A stretch of DNA of 64,000 nucleotides from Patescibacteria group bacterium (GTDB lineage: Bacteria > Patescibacteriota > Microgenomatia > UBA12405). A program made the translations under genes and the position numbers. The stretch is taken from contig JBMNON010000006.1 of the NCBI GenBank assembly GCA_050943115.1, positions 963 to 64,962 on the forward strand, written 5' to 3'. Under the pieces are notes generated by a model that did no database searches, was not told the DNA's origin, and saw only the letters and a program-made list of their open reading frames with translations. Below, one piece after another: positions 10,858 to 43,313 of the stretch; the stretch's first letter is position 1, and every line of letters starts with the position of its first letter.

Positions 10858-12831
10858 CTAATTGCAGCGACTTTTATATTTATTGATCAGATCAAGCTTG
10901 TCCTGCCAGACACCTTTCCAATCGTCCTGCAGAATGCCGCCAGTATCGCCCGAGTTCGGGTTCCAGCTCCAATAGAAGGCATCACAAATTCCTTTGTTAA
11001 TAAAGTAGTCGGTGATGGCGTTTTGCCAAATAATATCTTTGGGATCACCGCCATGGCCATATTTGCCACCATATTCGCCAATAACTACCGACTTGCTTTG
11101 GTCTCTGAGGAAACCAAAATGGGTGTGCCAAATTCTTGACATATTCCCGGGAAATTGCCCATCGGAGAAGTAATTTTGGGGATGGACATCCGGACCATAA
11201 ACATGGGGAGAATAGACTAATTTGTTGGCCGGAATGTAGGAATTATCGATCGGATAGCACATTTCCGGCTCAAAGTTACCACCCCACCAGTGAGCTACAG
11301 AGTTGTCAGAACAGGTGGGATTATCCTGGACACCCTGGACGAAGATAAGGAGGTTGGGATTGGCGGAGAGAATTTCCCTGCCGGCTTTTTGGGCAGCAAG
11401 GCGCCAATCGGTACGGGTATCATTGGTGCCCCAAGTGGCAACTCCCTTGGGTTCGTTCTTGATGTCAATACCCATAAAATAATCCAAATTCTGATAACGA
11501 TCGGCAACAAACTTTAGATCCATAATCCAATCGGCTTCCGAATAAGAATCGGTGTACCAGAGATCGGTAATATTCTGGCAATTAACTGTATGGACATCCA
11601 GTAAGATGTGGAGTTTCTGATTATTCATTTCAGTCAAAAACTTATCCAACAGATCAAGGCTGTTTAAATTTCTGAGGTCTTCGTTTTTGTAGTAGTCAAT
11701 AGAGCTGACCGGAGAATTTTTTAAGGTACCCGGGCAGTAAGGAACCCGGACCGCATTAAAACCGGTACTTTTAATCTGGGAGATCATGTCCTTCCAATTC
11801 CTCTCCCAAAGACCATGGGCAACAAAGGTAGTATTTTCAAAACCAAACCAACTGACACCATTAACTTTGACCCTGTTACCGTTGTGATAGATTTTGCCGT
11901 CACTACCGACTTCGTAACTACCGACATTATTACTTGAATCAGGAAGGGAGGGGGTGGGGACAGAGGTGGGAGTAGGGCTTGGAGGAGTGGGGGTCACAGA
12001 AGCAATAGGGGTGGGTTGAGTACCACCAGAAGCCTGGCCAACATTAAAGCTCAGAGAATTGTCAAGCCAGTAATGATTGTAAGCCCAATAAGGGGCAAAA
12101 ATGCCAACTTTGACTTTGTAATCCCCCTGGAGTTGGGGTGTCCAAGTAGTGGTAAAAGTCCGATTTTGGTTGGCTTTCAACTCCTGATTTTCAAAATACT
12201 GCTGATCTATTTTGCGGTTGTTTCCATCATAAACCTCAACGTCAACAATGGCGTTTGGGTGATCGACGGGAGAGGTAATGTTCGTGTTCAGCTTGAGAGG
12301 TGAAGAGACAGAGGGGGTGGAATCGGTGCTGGTATTTATTAAGTATGAGGAGGATGAGGGCTGGCTTTCAGAAGCAGCTTGAAATTGCAAGGCATTGTCT
12401 TCCCAGTAAAAATTACGACTCCAGTTAGAAGTGAATAAGCCAACTTTTACCTGGTAATCACCTTCAATCTGAGGAGTCCAATTGGTCCTAAATCTTGTTA
12501 TTTGATAAGAATTAATATTAACTCTTTCAAAAAAATGCTGATGAACTTTTTGATTTGAAGAGTTATAAATTTCAATATCGACAATAGAGTCATTGACGGT
12601 GTCGGAAGGACGGATATCGACGATAATTTCTGCCGGACTGCGAACCTGAGCAGAATTAACTTTAGCAGAGATAGTAAAACTACCGGAATTGGCGCTAACG
12701 AATTTCCCTGAAGCCAGTCCGGTAATCAGAGAGAATAAAAAAGATAAAAGAACTCCAAGAAAAAACCTGGAGTTAAAGTGTTTGGGTTGACTTGTGACTA
12801 TTCCTGTCAAAGTCGAGATATTTTTAGGCAT
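10858..12831 (-). CDS. secreted/anchored GH5 endoglucanase (cellulase) with two N-terminal tandem ~100-aa accessory modules and a PT linker
   Basis: It has the GH5 acid/base motif IKNEPKG and the nucleophile motif VVIGEYGG. Two paralogous N-terminal modules (VDIEIYNSSNQKV...YQVKVGLF...; VDVEVYDGNNRKI...YKVKVGIF...) precede a PTPT linker. Confidence 0.8.
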   Translation of the reverse strand: MPKNISTLTGIVTSQPKHFNSRFFLGVLLSFLFSLITGLASGKFVSANSGSFTISAKVNSAQVRSPAEIIVDIRPSDTVNDSIVDIEIYNSSNQKVHQHFFERVNINSYQITRFRTNWTPQIEGDYQVKVGLFTSNWSRNFYWEDNALQFQAASESQPSSSSYLINTSTDSTPSVSSPLKLNTNITSPVDHPNAIVDVEVYDGNNRKIDQQYFENQELKANQNRTFTTTWTPQLQGDYKVKVGIFAPYWAYNHYWLDNSLSFNVGQASGGTQPTPIASVTPTPPSPTPTSVPTPSLPDSSNNVGSYEVGSDGKIYHNGNRVKVNGVSWFGFENTTFVAHGLWERNWKDMISQIKSTGFNAVRVPYCPGTLKNSPVSSIDYYKNEDLRNLNSLDLLDKFLTEMNNQKLHILLDVHTVNCQNITDLWYTDSYSEADWIMDLKFVADRYQNLDYFMGIDIKNEPKGVATWGTNDTRTDWRLAAQKAGREILSANPNLLIFVQGVQDNPTCSDNSVAHWWGGNFEPEMCYPIDNSYIPANKLVYSPHVYGPDVHPQNYFSDGQFPGNMSRIWHTHFGFLRDQSKSVVIGEYGGKYGHGGDPKDIIWQNAITDYFINKGICDAFYWSWNPNSGDTGGILQDDWKGVWQDKLDLINKYKSRCN

Positions 12832-21833: not shown

Positions 21834-24800
21834 TTAGGAAGAAGCTTTTACATTGAGGCTTCTCTCCTCCACCAAGCGCCGGCGCAGGGAAAAGACAAAG
21901 AAGATGAGGACCAGGAAGTTGAGGGCCGAGGGATAAAGCAGGTAGGAGTAGGCCACGGAGACGATAGCCAGGAGGGTGAGGTGGGAGTAGTAGCGCCGGA
22001 GGAAGGCATCGAGGTGAGGCAGGAGACGGTCGAGAAGACGGGGGCGGGACTGGGGCCGGGCGGTTAGCTCCAAATTAAGTTCCAGGCGAGTGGCCTTAAA
22101 GAGGAGGGGCTGGGTCAGGGGTGAGTAGTTAGCCTTTTTGACGGTCAGGGTGTAGGAACCGGGAGCCGGATTGAGAGTGTAAAAGCCGGAGGCATCAGTC
22201 AGAGTGGAGTAAATGCGGGAGCCGGAAGTCAGGGTGACGAGGGCTTTGACCAGGGGCTGGTGGCGGGCATCAGTCACCTTACCCCAAAGGAGCTGCTTTT
22301 GGCGCTTGAAGCCAAAGAAGAAGGAGACGGGAGCCAGGAAGAAGTAGAGGGTTTGCTGGAGAAGGAGGCGGAGACTAGTCCAAAGAGACAGGGAGGCGGA
22401 TGAGGCCGAGGACAGGGCCGACAGGCTGGTTTGGGCGGCTTGGGCCACCAGGTAGGCAGCCGAGGTAACAGCAGCGGCTTCGGAAGTAGTGGCAGCCACC
22501 TGACCCAACTGGGAGGCGACGGGAGTCTCCTGAAGCTGGTAGCGGGTGGAGTCAATGGTGGTGGTGATAGTCTGGAGAGTATGGGTCAGGGGTTGAGGCA
22601 GAGCGGCAAGCAGAGGCGGAGTTACTTCGGGGACGATCTGAGCCAAGGGCGGCTCAAGGCTGCCGGGAGGCACCTGGTTATCAGTGCCAACCAGAGCGGT
22701 GGTGGGAGTGGGCTGGCTGGAATCGGCCAGGGCAGTGGTCGGGGTGGCAGCCGAAGCCTGGGGGGCGGGAGTCAAACTATCAGTGGCGGCAATGGCGGAA
22801 GAAGTGGGAGTAGGCTCAGAGGCGGAAGTGGTAGGCGTGGGAGTGGAGGTGGCAAGAGGAGAAGAGGTCGGGCTGGCTTCCGGGGCGGGGCTGGTATCCC
22901 CTACTTTGGTAGTGGGTGAAGGCAGAAGAGAAGCGGTGGGAGTCGGGCTGGGATCGGGGGCGGTAGTGATAGCGGTAGGCTGGCTAAGGGGAGTGGGAGT
23001 GGTTGAAGTAATGGCGATGACAGAGCTGGTGGGCGAAGGTTGGGAAGGGGTTGAAGTCGGTTGACCGGGAGCTGGAGTGGCAGTCGGTTCTCCGCCGCCA
23101 ATGGCCGGAGTGGTGGTAGGCTGGCTAAGGGGAGTGGGAGTGGCTTGAGGCAGAGGGGTGGGAGTAGCTTTGCCTTTTTTGGCCAGATAAACTTTGGTAG
23201 CAAAGTCCTGGCGGGAAGAGACGGCCAGGGTACGGCCCTGGGAAGTGGCCTGATAGTAGTAGGTGGTGTCGGGGTTGAGATGAGTGAGAGTGACGATGTG
23301 GTTTTTGGTGAGGGTGTCGGAAGCTACCGAATAGGCCAGGTCGGTGGAGGCGGCAAAGTGAAGAAGAGTGGTGGCCGGGTGGTTGGTGGACCAACGGACC
23401 TGGGCGGTGGTGTCGGTGATCTTGATAACCCGGAGGTTTTTGATCTGGGTGGAGTTTTTGGCCAGCCAGGTCTGGGCCTTGTCGAGGATGTTATCCTTTA
23501 CGGCCTGGGAGACTTTGGCGGGAAGTTTAGTGAGGGTGTCGGTAATGGTGTCAACGATGTGGCTGATGTCAGCGCCACTTCTCTTGGCAATGTTTTTGAT
23601 GGTGTCGGCAATGGTTTGGGCCAGGGAGTTGGCTTTCTTTTCGGCCTGGGCCGGTTTGGCGGATTGGGCCTGGGCGATTTTTTGTTCGATGAGGGCCCGC
23701 TCTTCGGCGGTGGCCGAGGACAACTTGGTATCCAGGAGGGCCTGAAGGTCGGCCAGTTCGCCGGGGGTAAGGTTGAGGGCCAGGGTGGCAAACTGATGGC
23801 GAGCGTCATAGGTGTAGGTCTTACCGTGGGACATGACCTCGTAGTAGTAGGTGGTATCGGGATCGAGGTTACTGAGGGTGATGGTGTGGTTTTTGACCAG
23901 GAGATCGGACTGGACATCGGCACCGTAGTCGTAGGAGGCGCCATAGTTGACCTTGGAGGTTGAGGGGTGGTTGGTTTTCCAGGAGATGAGGGCAGAGTTG
24001 GTGGCAATTTTGGTGGCTTTAACATTGCTAATCTTGGTGCGGGAGTTTTCAAACCAGGTGTTAAACCAGGACTGGGCTGAGGAGAGGAGGGAGTCCTTGA
24101 AGGCCTGAGACAGGTAGGGAATGGAGTTGATAAGGTCAGTGAGGGCGCCCAGGAAACGGGCGGCCGGCTCCCGGCCCAAATCGGCCAGCTTTTTCCAGAT
24201 GTTTTTAAGGGTATCGACGGCCTTGGTAGCAAAGTTGTTCCAGGCTGATTCCTTGTTACTGTCCTTGGCTTTAACAATAGTGTCAGCTTTCTTTTGAAGC
24301 TGCTGCTTGTCCTGGGCGGAGGCCGAGGAGAGCTTGTCATCGATGAGGGTTTCGATTTGCTCTTCTTCCTGAGGGGTAAAGTCACCGACTTTGAGAGTAA
24401 AGGTGATGGTTTTACTGGTATTGCCGGCAGCGTCGGTGGCAACAAGGTCAAAGCGGTAGGAAGCAGGAGGCAGGGGTTCCTGGGGAGTAAAGCTGAAGGC
24501 GGCACACTTGTCGTCGGTCTGGAGGCTATTGTCGGTGACAGGGTCACCACTCTGGCACCAGGCGGCAGAGGCGGCCAGGTTAAGGGTGGCAGTGGAATGA
24601 AGGGAATCGAGCCAGTAGGGATTGAGGCGAGTGATGGAAAGCTCCAGGGTTCGGGGGCCGGCGGCAACTTTGGTGTTCTTGGAGTCACCCTTGAGCAGAT
24701 CCTTGATCTGACCCTGAAGGCTGGGCGTCAGGTTGGAAGTGGAGTAATCAGATTGCTTGGGGTCAAAGCTGAGGTTGTTGAGAGAGGTGAGAGTCAGGAG

Positions 24801-27800
24801 GGGGTCGGTGGTATCGACAAAGACGGTTTTGGAAGAGGACGGCTGGCCTTGGCTGGTGTTGGTCTTGAGGGTGTAGTGGCGGGCGCCTTCCTTGAGAGCG
24901 CCCTTGTTTTGATTGCCGGTCCAGGCCGCGGCATCGTGGGTAGTCAGGGTAACAGTATTGTTGTCCTCGGTGCCATCGGAGAAGCCGGAGTAGCGGGCGG
25001 TGTATTTATCCTGGCGGTAGTCGGAGGTGCCGGAGGCGGGAATGCCAGTTAAACTCCAGTCACCCTTGGAACCATTGTCAACTTCCAGATCAAAGGAGGA
25101 GATACCATGGGCCGTGTCAGAGGACAAGGTCCAGGAGAAGGCCGGACGGGAGGAGTTGGTGTAGGAGTGGTGGGCGGGAGAGTCGAGGGAGACGGTAGAG
25201 ACGGCGGGAGTGGGAGTCGGGGTGGGAGTAGGAGTGGGAGTGGAGGTGGGGGTAGGAGTAGGAGTGGTGGAGGGAGCCGGAGGCTGGGAGGGGGTGGTGG
25301 GAGTGGGAGTGGGAGTGGGAGTGGAGGTGGGGTCGGGGGTTGGAGGTTGCGGATCAGTGCCGGCAACATCACCAATATTGAGTGTTGTAACCGAATACAT
25401 ACCCAAATCAGCATTAACAGGGTTACTTAAGCTTAGGAAAAGAGTTTTGGGAGTTTCGGGTTCAGGATTAAGAATAGAAACGGGTATGGTAGCGTAATAG
25501 GAATCGGAGGGGATAGTGGCAGTACCGGAAGTAAGAAGATAGTCAACCCCATTCTCAGCCGTACCACCAGTAATCTCATAATCGACAGTAACGGGTGAAG
25601 CAGATTTGCCGTTTTGAAGGATTAATTTGATGTCTGTCTCCCCTACTCCCTGAGGAGAAGCAGTATAAGGATGGGCAAACTCAATACGGGGAGGAGCCGT
25701 ATTGCCTATACCATCGCCAAAAGTAGCAAATGAATATTGGGATACTTGGGCGGGCAAGATTTCACTAAATTCTCCACCTACATGAACAGTGTTGTTGTTT
25801 ATAAGAAGTTCATAAACATCACAATAACCATTCTCAGGGGACGGATCCCATGAAGTGGCCGCTCCCGGTGCTTGGATAACACAATCACTTTGCTCAACCA
25901 AAACTACATCATCCAGCCAGCCTTTGTCTTCACCTACGCTAGAGGAACTGTCTTTACCATACAGCCAAGTAAAAGTATGATCGCCGGCATCAATGTTATA
26001 GGTAAATTCCGCCCAATCGGCACTCCCGGAGATACGATGCGTATAGCTGGTTCGCGAACAGGAGGGATTGTTGTGGCAAAAAACAAGATAGTCATATCCT
26101 GACTCGGAGCTAACTTTCCATGAAAATGATAAAGAAGCAGCTTGATCCGCAGTGACATCATAGGAAAGCGATGAAGATTGATTATGGGTAATAACACCTG
26201 ACTCGGCAGACATAGCTCCATCAGATGAATAGGTAGAAGAATGAGACCAGAGCACATCACCACCGCTACTCCAATTTTCCGGGGGGAAGACGTCACCTTC
26301 AAAAGATTCGGCGGGTCCGAGAGGCTCCAGGGGAGGACAGGTGGTACCGACCATGGTGGGCAGGAAAACTTCTGCAGCACAATGCCTTGATTGGCCGCCA
26401 GCATTCATAAAGTAACCTCCGGCTAAAATGGAATCCCGGGTCAGGTCAATAGTATAGACCGTGCTATCAATTTGAGGATCCCATTCTACAGCTGAACCAT
26501 CTTCTGTACTGACTGCAACCAAATAATATTTGTCGTCCTCTTGGTTAAAATCGGGAAAGTCGCCAGCGATATAAAGAATATCTTCGCTTGCAGCCAAATC
26601 ATATACTCCATCGTAGTTGCCACCGGCATCACCGGGGTACCAACTATCAAGCTGACCCGAGGCGATATCAAAAGCAGCAATGTTATATCTGGTGTAGTCA
26701 TCAATATAACTAAAATCGCCGCCCACATAAAGACGCGACCCGTGGGGAAGAATTTTATTTACCAATCCCCAGACAGAAGGGCTCCAAGATGTGGGAATAG
26801 AGTTGCTTCCTTCAAAGGAAGCTAACCCCTCACGGTCATATCCATTAATTTTTTCAAAATATCCTCCGATATAAATAGTATCTCCGGCTACGGCAATGTC
26901 GTAAATATAATCATCAGAATAGGGACTCCAAGATGTGGTTTCACCACTGTCAACGTCTATGGCGCCAAGATAATTTCTTGTCTGGTTGTTTATTGATAAA
27001 AACTCTCCGCCAACAATAATGTCATTTCCTTTACGGGAAATGGCATTAACCATACCACGGACAACAGGTAACCAGGATTCGTCCACTCTGCCGTCGGGAC
27101 CAATTCTAACCAAATTGTTAACTATAGTGCCTCCCGCTGAATTAAAATCCCCTCCCATATAAACCCTGTCGCCGTCAAATGCAAAGCTGTTAACATTCAT
27201 GCCATATTCAATATGGGGTGCCCACGGTGTAAGCTGCCGGGTTGACAGATCAAAGGCAGAGGCACTATGTCGAAAGTCACCATTCATATCCCAATAAACG
27301 CCGCCGACATATAGCAGACCGTCGTTTATGGCCAGATTAACAGTCCAACCCCAATATTTGTTATAAGGACTCCAGTCACGGGCTTCACCCGTAGAAGCAT
27401 CTACCGCAGCTAATTTATACAGTTGACGACCGCCAATTTCGTTGAAATGACCGGCAGCGTAAATATCGGATTCATAAGCGGCAATTGAACGAACCTCGTA
27501 ATTTGGCGCCGGTTGAAAATCGGGAATGGCTACGCCGTTTAAATCAAAAGCTGCTAAATTTTTTATTGGGGTTGAGCCATTGACTGTGGCAAAAGTACCG
27601 CCTACGTAGATATTCCCGCTGGCACCAATATCTATTGTATTTACGATATAGCTGCTGATATTGGGATTCCAATGGGTAAGATAAACCGAGCTATCGACAC
27701 AGGGGTACTGTGTATATTCGTATACTCTAACATTATCAAGCCAACCTCTGTTTGCTCCCGTAGAGTACGTTGACGTTCTCTGGTGCTTCCAAGTGATGGT

Positions 27801-30800
27801 GTGTTCTCCGGCTGAAATTGGAACAAAAACCTCCCTCCAATCCTGGTTACCAGAGATTCTCTGGTGAATGGGCACGTCGGAATATGTACAGTCAGGGTTA
27901 TCAATACAATAGAACAAGTAACCTCCTGCGCTATAAGTACTTACTTTCCAATTAAACTTTAAAACACCATCTTTTGAAAGATTTACCGTGGTTTGCAGGT
28001 AGGATGTTTGGCCGTTTGAAATAACCGGTGACTGGGCTGATTGGCTACCATCAAAAGCTGAAGTGCCTATTCCCCAATTTAAATTGCCCCCGGTGATCCA
28101 GTTATCCGGAGGGAAAGTGACCCCTTCGAAGGATTCTTCTACTACCGTCGAGTCGTTGACACAGTCGGGGCATGAGGGAGTCCAGACCGAGGCTGCTCGA
28201 TTTCTTATGGCAGTAGTACCAACGGAAGCGGTTACTGAAGTAAAATATCCGCCCAAGTAAAGCTGTTTTCCGTCAGAGCTAAGTTTTAGACTTTTGATGT
28301 AACTATTTGTTGTCGGCGTCCATTCTGTTATTAAACTACCATCTGCAGCGTTAAGTGCGGCCAATCGACTTCTCGATTGGCCATCAATTTCAGTGAAATA
28401 ACCACCGACGTAAAGAATTGAATTATCGGGGCTAAGGGCTAAAGAATAAACATCATCGTTGGGGTTAGGACTCCAATCGGGATCAACCGAGCCGTCGGGA
28501 AGAACATGGATTAAGTTGATTATTTCACTTGGTGAGTAGTTAATGTGGTTGAACCAACCGCCAACGTACCAGCCCCCATTCCCATCCGGGACTATGGTGT
28601 AAACTGAATCGCCATAGCTACTAGGGTCATCTAAATGGGGAAAATTACCAGTTACTTTGCCTGTGTTTTTGTCGATAAGTGCGGCTTTCCCGGTAGCCGG
28701 AGCGAACAACTCGAACTCTCCACCAATATAGGTATAACCTTCCGATTCATATAAGGCTTGTGCTTCATAAACAAAACCACTTTCCTGTTCGGGTCCGCGG
28801 CCAAGCATGTAATTATGATTGGAAAATTGCATGGTAGGGGTCATGTCTGTCCCGGTCACAGGTAGGGGTATGGATGCAGCACTAGGTATGGGGGGCGGAG
28901 TAGGAGTAGCTGTAGGAGAAGGGGCTAGGGTTATTGTCGGCCAATAAATAGGATTGGAACAGTCAAGTTCGGATTCAGGTACATAATCATTAAACTGGGC
29001 TAAGCTTTTGCAGGAGCTTCCGTCAACGGTAATAAATTCACCTGCCAGAAATATTGTATTGCCAATAAATTTTGCAGTATTAATAGTGCTACTTATCGAT
29101 GGTTTCCAATCGGCAACCGAATAATCCGACATATTTATTATGGCCGCACGAGTAGCTCCAACCCCGGCAATATTCCAAAAAGAACCGGCAACGAGCAATT
29201 GTGATTCGTCAGAGTTAAATGACATGGATTTAACAGTACCGTTATTAGAATCGGAGACAGAATCCAATAAGTTACCGTCTGAATCTACCACAACAAAATC
29301 AGGACGGTACAGCCTGTTTACATGACTGAATTCTCCACCAATAAATATTTTAGAACCATCGGAGGTAGGTAGGATAGAGTAGACATAAGAGTCGGAGTTC
29401 CCGGATTCTATCGGGCCGGGGTACCAATCGTTGAGAGTACCGGTGGTGGCGTTAACGGATCCAATACGGGTACGGTATTCACCAGCCAAAGCTTCAAATT
29501 CACCACCGATATATAAATTATTGTTATTATAAGCTAGGGCGAGTACCCTGTCGGCAGCGTCAGGAGCCCAGTCAAGCAAAGAGTTGTCTGATGTGTCAAA
29601 AGCAGCTAAGCGATAACGAACTTGGTCCCCTACCCTTGTAAAATCTCCACCTACATACAAAACCGATTTATCATGATTAAACTCGAGTGTCCTAACGGTG
29701 CTATCTAGAAGAGGATTCCAATTTACTATAGTTTGAGAACAAACATCAAGGGCGGCAAGTCTAGAAAAATATTGAGGACCTTCAAAGCTAGTAAAAGAGC
29801 CGCCGACATAAACTATGTTATCTTTGGCAGCTATTGAATACACGTATGAAAAAGGATTTGGGGCCCAATCTTTGGCAGCTCCGGTGACGGCATCAAGAAT
29901 AGCAAAATAACGCCGGTAAACTCCACCTACCGATTTAAAATCACCGCCAATAAACAATTTGGAGGAATCCGGGTCGTAAAAAAGTTCCTGGACATAACCG
30001 TCAGCCATTGGGGGATTAATAATTCCTGAACCATCCGATTTATTTATAACAAAAAGATGGTTGAATATTATGCCAGTCCCAGTGGAGGCATTATCAAAAC
30101 GGCCACCGACATAGATTTTATCCCCGATGCTTTCAAGTGCATATCCGTAGAAGTAATTACTGGTTGGCAAGACTGGATTCCAGTCGAGTGTTTCTCCAGT
30201 CAGGCTATTAACAGCAGCGACCCTATTTCTAGAAAGACCACCAATGGTAGTAAAAGAACCGGTTAACCAAACTTTATCATTGTCATATAAAATGTCATAA
30301 ACATAACCATTTGGTGCCGGGTTGAAGTCAAGAGCAGTTGCCGTTGAAGTGTTAATGGCCGCAAAATAAGTCCTAAGTTGGCCTCCGATATTTATATCCC
30401 TAAAGTCCCCGGCTAAATAAATAACGCTATCGTCATTATTTAAGTCGATGTCAGCAATGTTATATTGATAAACTGAGCTTATGGGATTGAAGTCAGTGGG
30501 CTGACCTGACAAATCAATCTGGGCTAAACGATTACGGGTGACACCACGGATGGTGGTGAAATTTCCAGCTACATATATTAATTCTCCGGTACTATTGGTA
30601 GTAATTGCCCTAACGGTGTTGTTGGAGTTGGGGTTCCAAAGCCTGGCTAAACTGGTGCCGCCACCGCATGGATAACTTTCATACTCATAAATCCGGACAT
30701 TATCCAACCAGCCACGGTTGGCACTGTAATTCAAGGTCGAGGTTCTCTGATTCTTCCAGGTAAGAGTATGACTACCGGCGATAAGGGGAACGGTAACTTC

Positions 30801-31670
30801 TGCCCAATCTGTAGTCCAATTTATTCTGGCAGTATAACCGGAGCTATAAGTGCAAGAAGGATTATCAACACAAAAATAGAGATAGTTACTTGAAGCAGCG
30901 CTGATTTTCCAAAAAAACTTTATCTCACCATCTTTGGCCATATTGACAGTGGTTTCCAAATGGGAGGTTTGGCCGCTTTGTAAGATAGGTGTTTGGGCTG
31001 ATTGGCTGCCATCAGTTGCCGAGGTACCGATCTCCCAATTGGCATGTCCACCGGTTATCCAACCATCCGGTGGGAATGTTCCTCCCTCAAAAGATTCTGT
31101 GACAGAAGAAGATACCGAGCATGTTTCCGGCTGAGGCGTGGTTCGCAGGGCAGCAATACGGTTTCTGGTAGTAGAACCATTATCTACAGTTGTAAAACTA
31201 CCACCTGCATACAAAGTTGACTTATCAGGGCTGAGTGTTAATGCTCTGACTTCATAGTTTGGGTTGGGGGCCCAACTGGTATCGATGCTACCGTCGGCAA
31301 GAATATGGGCGAGATTTTTGATATTAGTACCTGGTATTGCCGGGAAGGTACCGCCAACAAACCAACCACCACTACCATCCGGAACGGAAGCGTAAATTGA
31401 ACCGTTTCCGATTTTTAAAAAGTTAGGTGTTACGCTACTACTGCCAATATCATATAAAGCACCAGCGCCGGTTTGAGGTCCAACATATTTAAAATCACCC
31501 CCCAGGTAGACATTATTACCGTCAACTTCCATATCATAAACCTTGCCATTAGTAACCCAGAGATTACTGTTTGGTGTGGTTGATTGGGCGTTGGTAAAAG
31601 AAGAGGAAAAGAAAAAAAGTAACAATAGGAATATTGATAAAAATAGCGGCTTTAATTTTTCTAAATGCAT
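21834..31670 (-). CDS. giant (3,278 aa) secreted, membrane-anchored surface protein: delta-60-type beta-propeller repeats, 3 MAM-like modules, Calx-beta, 2x(helical plus FN3), PT/S/A tract, CarboxypepD_reg-like domain, C-terminal TM plus RRR tail
   Basis: There is a signal peptide [29 protein letters not shown]. Dozens of ~55-60-aa repeats follow the pattern YVGGxFTxVxGxxRxxLAAxDxxxGxxxxWxP. Three copies of an ESFEG(G/V/D)xFPP(D/E)xW... module are present. A Calx-beta-like segment reads [18 protein letters not shown]...[12 protein letters not shown]. Two FN3-like segments end in DTTYYY. The C-terminus has a hydrophobic helix followed by RRRLVEER. Confidence 0.85.
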
Positions 31671-31739: not shown

Positions 31740-32894
31740 TTATTGCTCTTGATATTCTTGGGAACCGTTGCGGATCATGAGCTCTTTGGGCAGGAATTGG
31801 CGCTGGCTATTGAAGCGCTGATCTTCCTGACCGTGGATGGTGATTTTGACGGCTTTGACACCCGGAACTTGCAGAAGTGTTTTATTGAGCTGAAATGAGG
31901 CTCCTTTTGCCTGACAGTCATCTAATTCCGCTAGCTTTTTATTAAAATCAAGAGTAATAATTCCATCACTATTATCGACCTTTTCCAGTTTTATATTTTT
32001 ATTAAAATTGGTGAAATGTTTTTTCTTGTCATCATCCTGACGAGGGCCTTTAATTAAGGCATCGACAATAGAATTGATTACCTTACCCTTAATTTCTACA
32101 TCCTGCTTTACCGGACTTACTCTGGAACAATCTTTTTCAGAGTTGTTGCTACTGGGAAAGTACAAATTAAAATTACGATCATATTTAACATCAAGCTTTA
32201 GAGATAACTTGACGGATTGAGTGATCTTACCTTTTTCGTTTTTGTGGAATACTTCCAACTGAAGCGGATCTTCACTTTTAATGTTAACCGTCAACAGATC
32301 GAAATTTATAGGAAAAAAGAACTCCGCATACTCTTTACCGCCATCAGAGTTTATATCACAAGAAGCATCTTTGATGAGATAATCACCGGTGCGGCGGTTT
32401 TTTAAATTCAGATAAACCTTTGAATCCTTAATATTTGTAGAACCATAAATTATTTTGCCAAGCGAAATCAATTCGTTTGAACTTACTGAAGTTAAGACTA
32501 TAGAGGGGGCGGTTTTTATCTGAAGCTTGTCGGCAAGGTAATATTTTTTGTTTTCCCTAAAAGCCCCTTCGATATTAACCCAAAACCCCGGCTCCAGGGC
32601 GGTTATTTGTATGGAATTGTTTTTTTCATCAAAAGCTGCGGTTGACGGAGTGAGAGCCACCCTTATTTCCCTATTTTTTTTGTCCTCAACGACGAGGATA
32701 TTTTGACTGGGAAGATAATCAATAACCCGGGCGTAGATATTTTTTTCCGGAAACAGACGATTTTTTATTATTAGTAATACGGGAACTAGAAAGACCGCCA
32801 AAACAATGATCTTTGTTTTTTTATCTATTTTGGTGAAGCCGAGTTTAATTTTTTCTAAATAGAACTTAAGTTTTCTCTGGGTTCGCCTTTTCAT
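31740..32894 (-). CDS. membrane-anchored GerMN-domain protein
   Basis: There is an N-terminal TM helix. The C-terminal segment ALIKGP...GIITLDFNKKL...LLQVPGVKAVKITIHGQ has the GerMN pattern. Confidence 0.55.
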   Translation of the reverse strand: MKRRTQRKLKFYLEKIKLGFTKIDKKTKIIVLAVFLVPVLLIIKNRLFPEKNIYARVIDYLPSQNILVVEDKKNREIRVALTPSTAAFDEKNNSIQITALEPGFWVNIEGAFRENKKYYLADKLQIKTAPSIVLTSVSSNELISLGKIIYGSTNIKDSKVYLNLKNRRTGDYLIKDASCDINSDGGKEYAEFFFPINFDLLTVNIKSEDPLQLEVFHKNEKGKITQSVKLSLKLDVKYDRNFNLYFPSSNNSEKDCSRVSPVKQDVEIKGKVINSIVDALIKGPRQDDDKKKHFTNFNKNIKLEKVDNSDGIITLDFNKKLAELDDCQAKGASFQLNKTLLQVPGVKAVKITIHGQEDQRFNSQRQFLPKELMIRNGSQEYQEQ

Positions 32895-36095: not shown

Positions 36096-36432
36096 TGACG
36101 ACGAGGCGATTTTGGAGGCGGTAAAAATGGCTTTGGAAATGGAAGATTACGAAGTGGAAACCTTAAGCCGGGGAGATAATGCTGTTGATGCAATCAAGCA
36201 ATTTAGCCCAAAACTAATACTGCTCGACTATCTTCTTTCCGGCGAGGACGGGAGAGAGGTGGCAAGCAGAATAAGAAGCAATAAGGAGTGTAGAGACGTT
36301 CCGATTATTATGTTTTCAGCCCACCCTAATGCTGAAAACTATGTCCGAGGTTATGGAGTCAACGGGTTTTTACCCAAACCATTTGACTTGGATGTGCTGA
36401 TCGACATGGTGGGCAAATACACTAGGGCTTAA
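36070..36432 (+). CDS. single-domain CheY-like response regulator
   Basis: It has VLVIDDDEAIL, LILLDYLL and LPKPF. It overlaps the kinase 3' end by 26 nt. Confidence 0.8.
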   Translation: MIKRVLVIDDDEAILEAVKMALEMEDYEVETLSRGDNAVDAIKQFSPKLILLDYLLSGEDGREVASRIRSNKECRDVPIIMFSAHPNAENYVRGYGVNGFLPKPFDLDVLIDMVGKYTRA

Positions 36433-38056
36433 GTTGTCCCAAAGATGAATAGTTTGGTAGCTGCCGGCTCTCTGAGTCTTCCAACTCATAAATATCAGCA
36501 AAGGGAAAAGAGCCTACAATTTTATATTTGTCCAGAACCCCCGAGTCCTTGACTAGGCGGAAAGTTAAATCATTAATATCGTAAGTCCGCATGACAATCC
36601 ATTTAGCCCATCGGTCGGGTGAGCTGGTAGCACTTTGCCAATAGTCGCCAGTACCTTCATGAATAAATCTTTTCATTGGTAAATCCGACGAAAAGATGAT
36701 GGCGTCATGGGAAGCAGCAGAAATCAGAATGAACTCCTGTGTATCGGAGGCGTGTTCCTTGAGCCAATTGCTGACTTGGGTAACATTTTTTTGGCTGGAA
36801 CCGAAACGGGCGTCGTCAATGGTAACAGCATCAAGGCTTATAAAGGCAAAAAGAAAGATAAATCCGAGTATGCCGGTTATTAAGGGTTTGAATTTTGAAG
36901 CCCTATCGAAAAGGTAACCGACAAAAATGGCAATACTGGGAGCCAGCATGACCCCATAGCGGATATTAAACCAAGTTGTGCCAGAAATACCCTGAACGTA
37001 TAAAACTGAGTGACCCATGAATAAAGCCAAGATGTTGAATATAAGAGGAGCGATTAGTGTAAGTGATCCAAGCTTAATAGAAAAAGGTTGTTTTTTGCCG
37101 AACAGGAGCAGGATAAGACCGATAAAAGCCAGCAGTGCCGGAATGGTGTAAGAATTGTAAAGCAATGAATAGAGATAAATTTTTGAAGATAACAATAGGT
37201 TATATTTGGTAGGCAGGGTGCCGGCCTCTTCAAGCTGGGTCTGCTGGGCGTGAGCCGAAAAAGGCCCAAATATAAAGTAAAGTGGATCCCTAAAAATTAA
37301 AGTATTCCAGGCAAACCAAAGAAAAACTCCAAAGAAAGCCAGAGTAGAAAACAAGATAACAACTCCTTCTACGGTTTTATTTGCGTATTTCTTCCAAAGG
37401 AAAACTCCTAGTAATATCACAGAAAAAGCTAGAAGGAACCAGCCATCATAACGGACCAAGGTAGAAAGCATAATGAAAAAAGCCGATTTTATCAGACTTA
37501 GGACTCTTTCTTCCTTAAAGTACATGGTAAGGTAATAGGCGCCCGCAGTCATGGTAGCAAGGAGAAGCAGTTCTGTCATGGCGGTTGATTGTAGATAGAG
37601 AACATTGATATTGAATACAAAGACCATAACAGCGACCAAGCGGCCTAACATAGCAGTGCCAATCTTTTTTAGGAATACATAAATAATTACAGCTGTAGCC
37701 ACGTAGGAAATCATGGATTGAAGAGCACCTGAAAGACCACTGTGCCACATGAATTCGCTCCAAATGGTTGGAATCATAAGAATATGGGGCAGGGGTAACC
37801 AAACCGATCCCAGCTGGGCCAAACCAGGCTGAATGCCTTCAACAACCCGGCGACCAATATTGAGATGGGAACGGGCATCGTTGTATGCCAAACCCAAGCC
37901 ATTGTTGAAAAAGGCGATGTAGGCGGCAACAGAAATTAGGGTCATATAAAAAACCAAAATGACGACATCATGATCCTTAAAAAATCTAAAAACTTGTTTT
38001 GTATAGTTGGTTTTAAGAATGAGGCTTAGGGTGCCATTTTTAAAAGTTAGTTTCAT
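36422..38056 (-). CDS. GT-C fold membrane glycosyltransferase with a C-terminal extracytoplasmic domain
   Basis: There are roughly 11 TM helices. The first loop contains YNDARSHLNIGRR. The soluble C-terminal domain is about 170 aa. Confidence 0.5.
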   Translation of the reverse strand: MKLTFKNGTLSLILKTNYTKQVFRFFKDHDVVILVFYMTLISVAAYIAFFNNGLGLAYNDARSHLNIGRRVVEGIQPGLAQLGSVWLPLPHILMIPTIWSEFMWHSGLSGALQSMISYVATAVIIYVFLKKIGTAMLGRLVAVMVFVFNINVLYLQSTAMTELLLLATMTAGAYYLTMYFKEERVLSLIKSAFFIMLSTLVRYDGWFLLAFSVILLGVFLWKKYANKTVEGVVILFSTLAFFGVFLWFAWNTLIFRDPLYFIFGPFSAHAQQTQLEEAGTLPTKYNLLLSSKIYLYSLLYNSYTIPALLAFIGLILLLFGKKQPFSIKLGSLTLIAPLIFNILALFMGHSVLYVQGISGTTWFNIRYGVMLAPSIAIFVGYLFDRASKFKPLITGILGFIFLFAFISLDAVTIDDARFGSSQKNVTQVSNWLKEHASDTQEFILISAASHDAIIFSSDLPMKRFIHEGTGDYWQSATSSPDRWAKWIVMRTYDINDLTFRLVKDSGVLDKYKIVGSFPFADIYELEDSESRQLPNYSSLGQLKP

Positions 38057-39629
38057 AGGTGTCTTTTTCCAAATAAATTTTTATGGTATGGGTCAGGGCG
38101 ATAACAGAAACGATGGAAAGAACAATCTTAAAGTAATCGTGGGCAGAAAAATTTTCTGAGTAAGTTTGGCGGAAATATAGAGCTTTGGATCGGTTATTTT
38201 CGAGATGATCCAAATTGCGTTCAAAGGTATATTTTTGCTCTTGTCCGGTTTGTTCTTCAAGGGACAATACCTCGACTTGAGGAGGATTGCTAACACTGGT
38301 CAGGGCACCGGCGGTGTTAACGTAAAGAGAATATGAAAACACCGCCGTAAACAACAAGAGGAGGAGAGGTTTTGTCTTGAACTTGTTTAGATATTGAGAA
38401 ATGGCTACGGATAAAAATGCAAAACCAGGAATAAGATAACGCGGACCAAAAGACCAACCTCCCCACGGATCACCCCAGGACGAATAAATAAGAAGGTTGG
38501 TGATAAAAACCGAAAGTATTAAAACCGCAACCTTCTGGTGTTTTTGATATAGAATGGCAACCCCAAAAAAGGCAATAATGACAAGCGGCCAGTAATTGAT
38601 AACTCCCCTATCGGGGCTAAAGATAAGAATATTCATTCCGTTGACCAGATTTCTAGTGTTGAAAAAAGATAGTGCTGAGCGCTGCGATGCCAACTTTTCT
38701 AACTGAGCTGAAGTATTCGGATCAGCGGAATTGTCAGGTTGGGCTGGCAAGCCATTTTCGTCGATACTGCGAATGTTTTTAACCGTACCGGCTAGCTGTA
38801 AGGGGTTACCATAGCTTTTGTCGTGAACCCAGAAGAAAAACAATAAGGTGGATAGTGAGAAAAGAGGAATAAGAAGTAGGTATTTAAGATTTAGACTGAT
38901 TGCCAGATTATTCTTTAGTTTCCTAAAATTAACCAAACGAATTAGGGAATATACCAGTAAGGGAGAAAACAAAAAAGCATTGGGGTAATCTATCGCTAGA
39001 CTCAGGGGAAATAGAAACCAGGTGATAGACAGAGACTTAAGAGGACTAAACTTCAACAAACTATAAAAGGAAGTAAGGAGAAGAAAAACGGAAAGGTGGT
39101 GCTGGTAAAGGTTGACGGCATAAGCAAAGGCAGTGGAGGCAAAAGTAAAAGACAGGGCGGAAACAAAGGAAGAGTTGGAAGATGCTCCAAGTATTCTTGA
39201 GATTGCTTTTATTAGTAAAAAGTTTAAAAAAGCAAAAAGCAAGATGACAGCATAAGTGCCGATTTGCGAGGAACCTAGGAATTTGCCAATCAAATACCCA
39301 GGAATAAGTACAATGGCAGATCCCGGAGCGAAAAGGGAAACATACGAACCATTATGATAGCCGATATCGGGGATGGCAAACCGGGCGACCGGAAGAGTGT
39401 AACTAAAGGAATCTTCTTCGACGATGGAATAAACAAGTGCGAAACGGCCTCTTTCGGGAGAAGTGTCAAAGGGTCCGGCGTCTTTCCAACTGGAAGTGTT
39501 CAGTTTGGCTACATCGGGATTTCCCGGAATGCCACGAAGGGCGAGAACAAGAACCAACAAGGTCAGGAGATAGGGGGCCAGCCTACCAACCGACAATAGG
39601 GATTTCCCAAGGACTTTTAAAATTTTCAT
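38040..39629 (-). CDS. GT-C fold membrane glycosyltransferase (PMT/ArnT-like)
   Basis: It is polytopic, with a first-loop SPERGRFALVYSIVEEDSF motif and an extracytoplasmic C-terminal domain. Confidence 0.5.
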   Translation of the reverse strand: MKILKVLGKSLLSVGRLAPYLLTLLVLVLALRGIPGNPDVAKLNTSSWKDAGPFDTSPERGRFALVYSIVEEDSFSYTLPVARFAIPDIGYHNGSYVSLFAPGSAIVLIPGYLIGKFLGSSQIGTYAVILLFAFLNFLLIKAISRILGASSNSSFVSALSFTFASTAFAYAVNLYQHHLSVFLLLTSFYSLLKFSPLKSLSITWFLFPLSLAIDYPNAFLFSPLLVYSLIRLVNFRKLKNNLAISLNLKYLLLIPLFSLSTLLFFFWVHDKSYGNPLQLAGTVKNIRSIDENGLPAQPDNSADPNTSAQLEKLASQRSALSFFNTRNLVNGMNILIFSPDRGVINYWPLVIIAFFGVAILYQKHQKVAVLILSVFITNLLIYSSWGDPWGGWSFGPRYLIPGFAFLSVAISQYLNKFKTKPLLLLLFTAVFSYSLYVNTAGALTSVSNPPQVEVLSLEEQTGQEQKYTFERNLDHLENNRSKALYFRQTYSENFSAHDYFKIVLSIVSVIALTHTIKIYLEKDTYETNF

Positions 39630-42520: not shown

Positions 42521-43313
42521 AGATTCTTAAGAAAGCTTTTAGGGCCGGAGCAACAGGGATGCTGTAATGATTTTTTACGAATTGGTAACCATACTCAGAG
42601 ACAAGTTCATCTCTGGCCTGAAAAAACCTCTGACTTTGTCGTAAATGATCCTCAACATTTTGGGGCAATTTGAAAATGGCGACCGCATCTTTAGCGTACT
42701 GATATTTAAAGCCAAACTTTTTGGCGAATAAGTAAGAATGAGCATCTTCGGCCGTAAACTGTTTAAAGTCAATTTTATTGTAGAGCCTTTTGGAAAAAGC
42801 CCGGGCAATACCTTTGCAGGTATATATATTATTGCCTTGGTTGATGTTTTCAAAAAGATAATTTTTGAAAATGTTGCTGACAGCAATTGTCTCCTCAATA
42901 AAATTTTGGGGCGGGATTTCTCGGAGCCTAACAGACGTCAGGTCTGACTTTCTGTCAATAATGGGTCTGACTAACTTTTCAATAAATAAGCTGTCTTGGG
43001 GCAGGAGATCGGCATTAAGAAGAACAAGGATGTCGGTGTCGGTATAGGAAATGATTTGATTTTGGCGGTAAGGGGCACCTTTACGGAAATAGTTTTCCAG
43101 AACAAGAAGGCCGGGAAGGTCAAAACTACTGGCGATTTTGACAGTATTGTCATTACTGCCATCGGAAGCAACAATTACTTTTTTTAAGATATAATCTTTT
43201 TGCTCCTGTTCTTTTAGAAGATTTAGTAAGTTGCCGATATTAGCCTCTTCATTGAAAGCGGGAATGCCAATTGTAACCGTAAGTTTATTTTTATTTCCCA
43301 TAACTACTTTCAA
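42375..43313 (-). CDS. GT2-family glycosyltransferase
   Basis: It has IGIPAFNEE and a DxD-like VASDGSNDNT. Confidence 0.75.
   Translation of the reverse strand: MKVVMGNKNKLTVTIGIPAFNEEANIGNLLNLLKEQEQKDYILKKVIVASDGSNDNTVKIASSFDLPGLLVLENYFRKGAPYRQNQIISYTDTDILVLLNADLLPQDSLFIEKLVRPIIDRKSDLTSVRLREIPPQNFIEETIAVSNIFKNYLFENINQGNNIYTCKGIARAFSKRLYNKIDFKQFTAEDAHSYLFAKKFGFKYQYAKDAVAIFKLPQNVEDHLRQSQRFFQARDELVSEYGYQFVKNHYSIPVAPALKAFLRIFAQYPLHTFFYLYILAISKIKAKIKPYVFNKGIWQISSSTKYLDYPHD

Follow-up and report, generated by a model that had tools for sequence, protein, structure and literature searches.

A giant Patescibacteria gene encodes a multi-propeller candidate surface adhesin with jelly-roll modules inserted in its propeller blades

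A single gene in the MAG of an uncultured Patescibacteria (CPR) bacterium encodes a protein of 3,278 residues, which we consider somewhat more probable than not (roughly 55%) to be a Sec-exported, C-terminally membrane-anchored cell-surface binding protein of adhesin-like character. The gene lies in a stretch of 64,000 nucleotides, which was analysed as a whole and is called the window here. Its domain content supports the initial annotation, which described a multi-domain, multi-propeller surface protein with a C-terminal membrane anchor, and the 'host- or substrate-adhesion organelle' proposed there is a candidate role read from that content (Table 1).

We hypothesize that the signal peptide sends the N-terminal ~3,070 residues across the membrane, and that a first hydrophobic segment (TM1), a basic cluster, a CarboxypepD_reg beta-sandwich, a TM hairpin and a basic tail would hold the protein there, with the small sandwich probably facing the cytoplasm. 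Pro/Thr tracts, two helix plus FN3 units, Ig-like domains and a Calx-beta domain may form a long stalk through the envelope, ending in a distal head whose 28 blades of DUF5122 type fall into two units of 14 and probably make up four propellers. The head would display three lectin-like jelly-roll modules, each in a blade loop and probably stapled by disulfides. Their ligand may be a glycan or a surface protein, displayed by a partner cell or by a polymer. An adjacent membrane protein with a GerMN domain is a likely assembly or anchoring partner. Tn-seq in a cultivated member of the Patescibacteria found several surface adhesins with glycan-binding domains to be essential for epibiotic growth (PMC10633639).

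Table 1. Features of the giant gene and its upstream neighbour. Positions are those of the window; all features are on the minus strand. HMM, hidden Markov model; TM, transmembrane.
Feature	Residues	Position	Strand	Basis
Giant ORF, single ATG-to-stop, 3,278 aa		21834..31670, including stop codon	(-)	ORF reading; identical in contig L010
Signal peptide, putative cleavage between FTNA and QS	1-28	31587..31670	(-)	Hydropathy; same N-terminal layout in homologues
Blades 1-3; blade 3 broken after 'RNRIAAL' strand	46-188	31107..31535	(-)	Blade HMM; Pfam DUF5122, Rax2
Jelly-roll module 1, within blade 3; flanked by Cys184/Cys335, internal pair Cys267/Cys273	189-335	30666..31106	(-)	
End of blade 3 and blades 4-14	336-907	28950..30665	(-)	
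Pro/Thr linker joining the two 14-blade units; chance LPVTG at 936	908-945	28836..28949	(-)	
Blades 15-18	972-1174	28149..28757	(-)	Blade HMM
Jelly-roll module 2, within blade 18	1175-1324	27699..28148	(-)	Self-similarity and blade HMM
End of blade 18 and blades 19-27	1325-1783	26322..27698	(-)	Blade HMM
Jelly-roll module 3, within blade 27	1784-1933	25872..26321	(-)	Self-similarity and blade HMM
End of blade 27 and blade 28	1934-1993	25692..25871	(-)	Blade HMM
Calx-beta domain	1992-2101	25368..25697	(-)	PF03160
Pro/Thr linker 2	2102-2150	25221..25367	(-)	Composition
Beta-rich segment, ~280 aa, probably two Ig-like domains	2151-2428	24387..25220	(-)	Inferred
Helical segment 1 and FN3-like domain 1	2429-2630	23781..24386	(-)	Pur_ac_phosph_N; self-similarity
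Helical segment 2 and FN3-like domain 2	2631-2828	23187..23780	(-)	Pur_ac_phosph_N; self-similarity
Stalk: Pro/Thr/Ser/Ala tract, then Ala/Ser/Leu/Gln-rich	2824-3005, then to 3095	22386..23201	(-)	Composition
Hydrophobic segment TM1, then basic cluster KRQK	3096-3120	22311..22385	(-)	Sequence; homologues
CarboxypepD_reg beta-sandwich, starts WGKV	3127-3205	22056..22292	(-)	Pfam PF13620
Putative two-helix TM hairpin with YPS turn, and basic tail	3229-3264	21837..21986	(-)	Hydropathy; homologue alignment
Upstream gene, 384 aa, N-terminal TM helix, C-terminal GerMN (Germane) domain		31740..32894	(-)	Pfam Germane

Integrity and strain variation of the gene

The gene is a real ORF that runs unbroken from ATG to stop over the full 9.8 kb first annotated. 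Neighbouring proteins are deposited at NCBI under MGI58411xx as 'Patescibacteria group bacterium', which agrees with the small-genome host anticipated at the outset, and no obvious Shine–Dalgarno-like sequence occurs upstream of the ATG. A contig assembled independently from a different sequencing run on another sample (L010) is identical over the 9.8 kb, which answers an early concern about mis-assembly, as no chimera is indicated. A strain variant in contigs L011–L013 differs by 92 synonymous and 34 non-synonymous substitutions, and its internal indels, including a 6-nt deletion in Pro/Thr linker 2, keep the frame. Because of these counts in L011 and the in-frame indels, the comparison indicates that the ORF is under purifying selection. 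Clustered substitutions in jelly-roll module 1 led us to consider diversifying selection there; synonymous changes predominate, however (34 versus 13 non-synonymous), so we rejected it, and the pattern fits imported recombination tracts.

An origin of the ORF as an assembly chimera, or as a pseudogene in decay built of collapsed repeats, is thus extremely improbable. The gene is repetitive, and its exact product is not in the protein collection that we searched, in which the best match is 34% identical, but at the DNA level its internal paralogues do not exceed 76% identity, with the sole tandem repeat being a 119-bp (Pro-Thr)n hexamer array (25206–25324). A homologue collinear over 99% of the length, together with the identical independent assembly and the variant that retains the frame, also argues against this explanation. 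The product is probably missing from the collection because several of those contigs terminate within the gene.

Propeller head and inserted jelly-roll modules

The hydrophobic N terminus has the appearance of the signal peptide initially annotated, and the Ala-Gln-(Ser/Thr) junction at its putative cleavage site also occurs in homologues. The blade HMM recognizes 28 full blades (3 + 11, then 4 + 9 + 1) and three short strand remnants directly after the modules; the region of blades 15–18 is paralogous to residues 101–299 (44% identity). The propeller repeats of the initial annotation are borne out by DUF5122 (Pfam PF17164; 97.2 bits, E = 6.3e-28, cutoff 27, four reported stretches), and the tandem ~50-residue blades have the closed beta-propeller fold of that family, but the number given, about 40 delta-60 blades, was too high, and the delta-60 model TIGR02608 scores 16.2 bits (E = 0.007) against a cutoff of 76.5, so that by the NCBI threshold the protein is not a member but carries a related repeat. 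The Rax2 C-terminal propeller model (PF12768) also matches (93.4 bits, cutoff 28.8; three stretches, the best at residues 740–879), a likeness at the propeller level only, which carries no functional inference. We asked whether the LPVTG in the linker, the only LPXTG-like string in the protein, could be a sortase signal and rejected this: it is internal, no TM segment and basic tail follow it, and it is absent from the collinear homologue P0020.

Every jelly-roll module is inserted inside a propeller blade with a cysteine on either side. All 20 cysteines of the protein fall in the predicted ectodomain and are mostly paired, with one pair flanking each module, and these flanking cysteines probably staple the modules by disulfides. 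The three are paralogous, as initially noted, starting with ESFEG at residues 192, 1179 and 1788, ending in GWLD(N/D)V and sharing 38–59% pairwise identity. Their description as MAM-like holds for the fold but not for the sequence: the predicted structure (pLDDT 94.3) is a MAM-type beta-sandwich jelly-roll, but the MAM model (Pfam PF00629) matches neither the whole protein at E ≤ 1 nor the three isolated modules at E ≤ 10, and a PDB profile search with the module returned no MAM chain at E ≤ 10.

The top Foldseek match is the gingipain cleaved-adhesin structure 4itc (E = 7e-7, TM-score 0.69, 16% identity), and matches to gingipain K1–K3, several CBM families, the VesC C-domain, ELAPOR1 and MAM are about equally good. 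The jelly-roll fold is shared, at 13–20% identity, with K1–K3 of gingipain Kgp (4itc, 3m1h and 3km5), the MAM domains of PTPRK (8a1f), neuropilin-1 (5l73) and meprin (4gwm and 7uab), the VesC C-domain (6bqm), the ELAPOR1 galactose-binding-like domain (9vql) and CBM61, CBM16, CBM22 and CBM35; the CBM-type matches extend to porphyran-, alginate- and hyaluronan-binding modules. In sequence, neither the giant protein nor its modules match the cleaved-adhesin (K1–K3 type) family in Pfam, and the closest relative with a solved structure, ELAPOR1, is non-significant (E = 0.12, module profile). The Pfam model GBD_ELAPOR1-like_3rd (PF23032) is not reported by hmmscan for the giant protein or P0020, and only a 'faint' precomputed match exists in homologues. 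The predicted structure therefore makes the module MAM-like, cleaved-adhesin-like and CBM-like in fold only, and identifies neither a ligand nor its class, glycan or protein.

The module belongs to a large family of its own, with 10,755 cluster representatives in a full HMMER scan and arrays of up to 32 copies; no model in Pfam or NCBIfam scans of the module-array proteins names it. A word-indexed homologue search with the module alignment gave one weak match. A genome scan placed the module in proteins of different architecture in a Yonathbacteria MAG and in Bacteroidales, in the latter within a T9SS peptidase cluster that has dockerin and FN3 domains.

The resemblance to binding modules, including those of gingipain, porphyran-binding CBMs, MAM and ELAPOR1, is consistent with an adhesin-like protein, and Pfam and NCBIfam scans detected no catalytic domain anywhere in it. 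The same resemblance could also describe a scaffold that captures polysaccharides for nutrient foraging, in which the modules act as CBMs and hold environmental glycans for secreted glycosidases, rather than a host-cell adhesin. Many of the top structural matches are true CBMs (CBM61, CBM16, CBM22 and CBM35, and porphyran, alginate and hyaluronan binders), the window also contains genes for GH5 and GH113 enzymes that carry additional binding-type domains, and the Bacteroidales peptidase cluster would suit such a scaffold. We nonetheless consider foraging unlikely: no glycosidase lies in or adjoins the giant gene, the GH5 and GH113 genes are not conserved near homologues, and protein-binding MAM and haemagglutinin/adhesin domains match just as well in structure. 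Patescibacteria also have small genomes and mostly depend on hosts (general knowledge; PMC10633639), which speaks against foraging.

Stalk and C-terminal membrane cassette

Several stalk domains read from the sequence in the initial annotation are recovered by Pfam. The Calx-beta domain scores 32.3 bits (cutoff 27) and covers profile positions 4–117 of 119, and the two helix plus FN3 units (residues 2430–2629 and 2633–2825; DTTYYY in both) are 36–43% identical and match Pur_ac_phosph_N (PF16656; 50.3 bits, cutoff 30) in two stretches, with fn3 (PF00041) below its cutoff (21.3 versus 25). The putative Ig-like segment has only a weak, below-cutoff match to Pfam Big_13 (E = 0.0093). The hexamer array covers most of Pro/Thr linker 2 and extends 15 nt into this segment. 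What had been described as a Pro/Thr/Ser/Ala tract of ~300 residues is strongly Pro/Thr over ~180, followed by ~90 that are rich in Ala, Ser, Leu and Gln; owing to the coding bias of the stalk, local G+C rises to 53–60%.

At the C terminus, the CarboxypepD_reg-like sandwich proposed earlier is confirmed (PF13620; 44.8 bits, cutoff 32.3, residues 3129–3188), and the hydrophobic helices and RRRLVEER tail are present in the sequence. The hydrophobic stretch annotated as a single TM helix is also there, but at residues 3229–3264 it is long enough for a hairpin. TM1 falls under the hydropathy threshold used and is assigned from its context, including equivalent segments with a basic cluster in P0020, P0044, P0083 and P0184. 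P0020 and P0044 conserve the cassette of TM, basic cluster, CarboxypepD_reg domain and TM hairpin, and it is seen again in P0047, P0168, P0083 and P0184; the 'basic cluster then WGxV' start is shared by P0083 and P0184, with a weaker form, DWGVA, in P0047. Neither Por_Secre_tail nor any other sorting domain (sortase, T9SS or PEP-CTERM) was found in the giant protein by Pfam and NCBIfam scans, and a word-indexed homologue search with the C-terminal 229 residues gave no match.

In the cassette proteins, basic clusters sit on the sandwich side of most hydrophobic segments, and because of the positive-inside rule we favour a cytoplasmic sandwich. The CarboxypepD_reg fold usually occurs outside cells, and cytoplasmic placement is unusual; the topology of this domain is uncertain because TM1 is only moderately hydrophobic.

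A cytoplasmic sandwich would allow the protein to act as an integrin-like transmembrane receptor, in which TM1 and the hairpin would relay binding at the head to the sandwich and basic tail, for signalling or for linking to intracellular partners. Like an integrin alpha subunit with an I domain, it has a binding domain inserted in the blade region, a beta-sandwich leg (here of Ig, FN3 and Calx-beta type), a membrane anchor and a short basic tail. Basic clusters put the sandwich domain(s) in the cytoplasm in most of the seven proteins examined, and a two-component sensor kinase gene lies ~3 kb away. The likeness is pure analogy, however: homology to integrins is not detectable, the insert is a jelly-roll where integrins have a Rossmann-like vWA domain, the blades number 28 rather than 7, no beta-subunit is known and the host is a bacterium. 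The protein has no signalling domain, the kinase gene is not conserved near homologues and the topology is predicted only, which makes a receptor of this kind very unlikely.

Homologues, GerMN neighbour and candidate role in attachment

P0020 is collinear with the giant protein (34% identity over 99% of the length) and shares its Pfam set. Only four lineages with the full architecture were found among billions of proteins searched. A further scan of metagenomes, this time with the N-terminal region as seed, yielded 80 generic DUF5122 loci; none of them carries the jelly-roll module or a GerMN homologue, and no orthologues were gained. No curated family in the Pfam and NCBIfam scans matches the whole architecture, as had been anticipated. 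The propeller alone is common, with 943 DUF5122-type proteins matching at E ≤ 1e-10, several named at source as 'uncharacterized delta-60 repeat protein' or 'T9SS type A sorting domain-containing protein'. These include giant surface proteins of Bacteroidota, Verrucomicrobiota, Planctomycetota and others, which share the ~50-residue 'YVGG-F...G..R..LAA.D..TG....W.P' blades and the secreted, multi-kilodalton, multi-domain context. Most of them have a sorting domain, of T9SS (Por_Secre_tail) or another type, at the C terminus, whereas the giant protein ends in the TM–CarboxypepD_reg–TM hairpin cassette and also differs in its blade-inserted jelly-rolls and GerMN neighbour. We know of no function for DUF5122/delta-60 propellers, so the comparison names a family and gives no mechanism.

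The GerMN gene (Germane, PF10646; 57.7 bits, cutoff 23) has the same orientation as the giant gene and stops 69 nt short of it. P0020 has a 35%-identical GerMN orthologue upstream and P0044 a GerMN protein of the same layout downstream, so that a same-strand GerMN gene adjoins the giant gene in three of the four lineages; none is adjacent in P0047, nor in the distant cassette proteins P0168, P0083 and P0184. The 69-nt spacer contains no terminator-like site on the strand of the gene and no minus-strand promoter-like site, although counts of such sites over the scanned region do not exceed shuffled expectation. The convergent gene downstream is not conserved. No relative came up when metagenomes were scanned with the GerMN protein as seed, and searching the literature for Patescibacteria together with GerMN yielded nothing; to our knowledge, a link between a GerMN protein and a giant surface protein has not been described.

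GerM of Bacillus subtilis is a sporulation lipoprotein, and the GerMN family has been linked to envelope assembly complexes. The neighbour shares with GerM the GerMN domain and a membrane tether, but its host is not a spore former and it has one GerMN domain after an uncharacterized region of ~190 residues. Conserved adjacency suggests that it is a likely assembly or anchoring partner of the giant protein. The envelope-assembly link of its family would also suit a structural envelope component, S-layer-like or coat-forming, whose propellers tile the surface without a specific ligand, as would a very large, repetitive, secreted protein with a membrane anchor and long Pro/Thr spacers. We regard such a coat as very improbable, because the rarity of the family is unlike that of a core envelope component; Pfam and NCBIfam scans also found no SLH or other S-layer domain.

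Cassette and GerMN protein together may constitute a previously undescribed anchoring or trans-envelope coupling system for giant surface proteins with varied ectodomains in Patescibacteria-type bacteria. It would comprise TM, basic cluster, 'WGxV' CarboxypepD_reg sandwich, YPS-turn TM hairpin and sometimes a second sandwich; the sandwich would be cytoplasmic, and the protein an integrin-like two-sided receptor, not a passive adhesin. We hold this to be quite unlikely.

The giant protein is most likely an unusual variant of the common giant bacterial surface proteins, with a binding role suggested by its domains. As it is still a hypothetical adhesin, and one whose general type is well known, the finding is a useful annotation and no surprise. 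Patescibacteria account for a large share of uncultured bacteria, and the majority are believed to live on other cells; few molecules that mediate this attachment are known to us. The gene supplies a specific candidate of clear extent, whose propeller head bears three lectin-like modules. It also contains two reusable parts that lack a curated model: a very widespread jelly-roll family and a recurring C-terminal cassette, which GerMN may partner. Should this cassette turn out to be general, it could serve to detect surface proteins in CPR genomes.

Integrity and strain variation of the giant gene

The giant gene is a single open reading frame. An exact-sequence look-up of the protein encoded by the adjoining GerMN gene recovered the GerMN–giant gene pair in four independent Logan assemblies. 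Contig L010 (SRR31061296) matches the window sequence without a difference across the full 9.8 kb up to the contig's own end, whereas L011–L013 (SRR27676597-9) carry a second strain variant, in which 92 codons differ synonymously and 34 non-synonymously from the window and internal indels of 3 and 6 nt keep the frame. JGI sample 3300060977 also carries the gene. This synonymous-rich pattern, together with the in-frame indels, indicates that the frame is held by purifying selection. Within the gene, the DNA identity of paralogous units does not exceed 72–76%, and the only tandem DNA repeat is a short hexamer array. Collapsed repeats do not account for the gene and, given the identical copy and the frame kept in the variant, an artefact is a very remote explanation. 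The exact protein is absent from the protein collection that was searched (best match, 34% identical), probably because several of the contigs that carry the gene stop inside it.

Outside two tracts, the L011–L013 variant is near-identical to the window, with 29 codons changed over about 8.5 kb (19 synonymous and 10 non-synonymous). The first tract corresponds to module 1 (34 synonymous and 13 non-synonymous differences) and the second to blades 10–14 plus the linker (39 and 11). Both look like tracts imported by recombination and subject to purifying selection, rather than products of diversifying selection.

Features of the giant gene, its homologue loci and the rest of the window
Feature	Position (nt)	Strand	Description
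Giant gene	31670 (ATG) to 21834–21836 (stop)	(-)	3,278 aa
Module 1	30666–31106	(-)	ESFEG/'WKVSSE...GWxDxV' jelly-roll
Module 2	27699–28148	(-)	ESFEG/'WKVSSE...GWxDxV' jelly-roll
Module 3	25872–26321	(-)	ESFEG/'WKVSSE...GWxDxV' jelly-roll
C-terminal cassette	21837–22385	(-)	Order shared with P0020 and P0044
Hexamer array	25206–25324		119 bp, GGGAGT; encodes (Pro-Thr)n
LPVTG motif	28863–28877		aa 936–940
First variant tract	30669–31157		aa 172–334
Second variant tract	28839–29609		aa 688–944
GerMN gene	31740–32894	(-)	Directly upstream of giant gene, same strand, 69-nt spacer
GerMN gene, contig L006	2671–3756		Beside a giant-gene homologue
GerMN gene, contig L094	10616–11749		Beside a giant-gene homologue
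GH5 cellulase-family protein	10858–12831	(-)	Wzt_C-like beta-sandwich domain
GH113 protein	50152–52350	(-)	Wzt_C-like beta-sandwich domain
Two neighbouring ORFs	36422–39629	(-)	544 and 529 aa
GT2–GT4 glycosyltransferase fusion	43291–46542	(-)	1,083 aa

Propeller head and inserted jelly-roll modules

The head of the protein matches the Pfam models DUF5122 (97.2 bits against a cutoff of 27; four stretches reported) and Rax2 propeller (93.4 bits against 28.8; three stretches, the best at aa 740–879); the NCBIfam delta-60 model reaches 16.2 bits, far under its cutoff of 76.5. The initial annotation had estimated about 40 blade repeats, a figure that a blade hidden Markov model (HMM) trained on the protein reduces to 28 full blades, arranged as 3 + 11, a Pro/Thr linker and 4 + 9 + 1. 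The two 14-blade units are paralogous, with 37–55% identity over the aligned segments when aa 101–499 are compared with aa 1032–1485. The linker that joins them contains an LPVTG motif. As a sorting signal this motif was rejected: it is internal, is followed by no transmembrane segment and basic tail, is not conserved in the homologue P0020 and is probably there by chance.

The blade HMM also detects an orphan short W(N/D)P strand directly after each ESFEG module (aa 336–356, 1325–1344 and 1934–1949), and each module is therefore placed within a blade. Judged from these flanks, every jelly-roll sits inside a blade, with a '...RNRIAAL' strand before it and 'LWNPN' after it, and not between propellers. 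Cysteines bracket each module (184/335; 1167 or 1170/1324; 1764 or 1778/1930), each module has an internal CxxxxxC pair, and all 20 of the 20 cysteines of the protein fall within the predicted ectodomain, a pattern that would be compatible with extracellular disulfides.

The three modules are 38–59% identical to one another and match nothing in Pfam or NCBIfam, even at E ≤ 10. An AlphaFold2 model based on a 40-sequence alignment confidently predicts an 11-strand beta-sandwich (pLDDT 94.3, pTM 0.89), for which the top Foldseek ranks are the gingipain K1, K3 and K2 adhesin domains, CBM61, and the MAM domains of meprin and neuropilin (TM 0.62–0.72). Nearly all structural neighbours are binding modules, gingipain haemagglutinin/adhesin domains among them. 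On this model, the module takes a jelly-roll fold of the class shared by MAM, cleaved-adhesin and CBM domains. In a profile search of PDB sequences the leading entry was ELAPOR1, with an E of 0.12 that is not significant, and no MAM chain was returned. Earlier described as MAM-like, the modules thus keep that label for their fold class, supported by the Foldseek matches to MAM domains, but not for membership of the MAM family.

They instead belong to a large domain family that has no Pfam or NCBIfam model, as scans of several proteins with module arrays also found. A full HMMER scan with a three-sequence profile against 1.84 billion cluster representatives (50% identity) recovered 10,755 proteins at E ≤ 0.001, 681 of them at E ≤ 1e-30, with tandem arrays of up to 32 copies in one protein. 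For the homologues, precomputed tables list only a 'faint' match of the module to PF23032 (GBD_ELAPOR1-like_3rd); the galactose-binding-like domain of ELAPOR1 is the closest named relative of the family. In a genome scan, a Yonathbacteria protein and T9SS peptidases of Bacteroidales had the module alone, in other architectures.

Stalk, membrane cassette and GerMN neighbour

Behind the head, the stalk comprises a Calx-beta domain, a Pro/Thr linker, an Ig-like region, two helical plus FN3 units, a Pro/Thr/Ser/Ala tract (about 180 aa) and an Ala-, Ser-, Leu- and Gln-rich stretch (about 90 aa), after which the cassette begins. Two domains proposed from sequence inspection were recovered by Pfam above cutoff: Calx-beta at aa 1992–2101 (32.3 bits against 27) and, in the cassette, CarboxypepD_reg at aa 3129–3188 (44.8 bits against 32.3). 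The approximately 280 aa past the Pro/Thr linker, with a weak Big_13 match only, are probably two Ig-like domains. The FN3-like Pur_ac_phosph_N model scores 50.3 bits (cutoff of 30) in two stretches, and the two helical plus FN3 units are 36–43% identical. Between 22000 and 26000, G+C climbs from about 40% to 53–60% and the plus strand shows a strong positive GC skew; the rise in G+C stems from the bias of the stalk regions towards Pro/Thr/Ala codons, not from foreign DNA.

By alignment and hydropathy, the order of the cassette is common to the giant protein and its homologues P0020 and P0044. It starts with at least one hydrophobic segment and a basic cluster (KRQK, RNKKK or RRQN), continues with CarboxypepD_reg, which opens with WGxV in the giant protein and in some other cassette-bearing proteins, and basic residues, and ends with some 35 aa of hydrophobic sequence and a basic tail. 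This stretch, which has a central YPS-type turn in the giant protein and P0020 and another turn in P0044, is taken to be a hairpin. Most hydrophobic segments have their basic clusters on the sandwich side; by the positive-inside rule, the sandwich domain or domains would therefore be cytoplasmic and the large N-terminal part outside, although the first transmembrane segment of the giant protein is only moderately hydrophobic. Reading the protein as an integrin-like receptor working on two sides of the membrane seems to us improbable. P0047 and the more distant P0168, P0083 and P0184 have different ectodomains, keep the cassette and carry a second CarboxypepD_reg past the hairpin, as if the cassette were a general anchoring module.

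The GerMN gene encodes a protein of 384 aa, with a transmembrane helix at the N-terminus and a GerMN domain (57.7 bits) at the C-terminus. The 69-nt spacer between it and the giant gene contains neither a terminator-like site on the strand of the gene nor a promoter-like site on the minus strand. P0020 has a 35%-identical GerMN orthologue in the equivalent position in two assemblies. Directly downstream of P0044 lies a gene for a 377-aa protein of matching layout (Pfam Germane, 23.7 bits against a cutoff of 23; hhalign E of 3e-5 over 244 columns). No GerMN gene occurs on the contig of P0047 or beside P0168, P0083 and P0184. In three of the four lineages the two genes are adjacent and share a strand, with GerMN upstream twice and downstream once, which suggests that the GerMN protein may be a functional partner of the giant protein.

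Relatives, genomic setting and probable function

A full-length search returned 943 proteins with DUF5122, mostly from Bacteroidota, Verrucomicrobiota and Planctomycetota, many with T9SS tails and several named 'delta-60 repeat protein' at source. Giant DUF5122 propeller surface proteins are common and uncharacterised, and the general kind is already known. Few share the whole domain plan: P0020 (3,120 aa; 34% identity over 99% of the query; the same Pfam set), P0047 (2,353 aa; from an NCBI assembly) and P0044 (1,530 aa). No LPXTG, T9SS or PEP-CTERM signal was found in the giant protein; the sorting signals usual in such proteins are replaced by the cassette. Particular to this gene are the cysteine-bracketed jelly-rolls inserted in blades, the cassette, the recurrent GerMN neighbour and a CPR host. 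The proposal of an episymbiotic, small-genome lineage holds at phylum level: exact look-ups of neighbouring proteins gave NCBI records MGI5841134-175, labelled as MAG proteins of a Patescibacteria group bacterium and lying on a contig of 69,286 bp.

The window also encodes a PMT_2 mannosyltransferase, RarA, DinB, a FAD/Rieske oxidoreductase, an NMT1-like binding protein and a HAMP histidine kinase, and contains neither a tRNA gene nor an Rfam match. Its GH5 and GH113 enzymes each pair with a Wzt_C-like domain, which is unusual for secreted glycosidases of a small-genome bacterium. Glycosyltransferase genes form a block at about 39.6–46.5 kb that contains the GT2–GT4 fusion, with further ones at 58–63 kb; the block is possibly an envelope or protein glycosylation locus, and may be relevant to the Pro/Thr stalks. 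The two neighbouring ORFs have no Pfam match at E ≤ 1e-3 (544 aa) and E ≤ 1e-5 (529 aa).

The giant gene is conserved and intact and encodes a secretion-type protein with a propeller head, inserted binding-type modules, a stalk and a conserved membrane cassette. The protein would be exported by Sec with cleavage of its signal peptide and anchored by the cassette, with the stalk reaching through the envelope and the modules, perhaps with the propeller faces, binding a ligand, either a glycan or a protein, on a partner cell or a polymer. We favour a cell-surface binding protein or adhesin, with a probability of roughly 0.55. In support of this reading, the searches detected no catalytic domain, nearly all structural neighbours of the module are binding modules, and Tn-seq in a cultivated Patescibacterium showed that its epibiotic growth requires several surface proteins that carry glycan-binding domains (PMC10633639). 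Capture of polysaccharide, and not host adhesion, is a distinctly less probable use of such binding; a purely structural coat is unlikely. As an adhesin or otherwise, the giant gene offers a concrete annotation with testable parts, its function being proposed by domain analogy.
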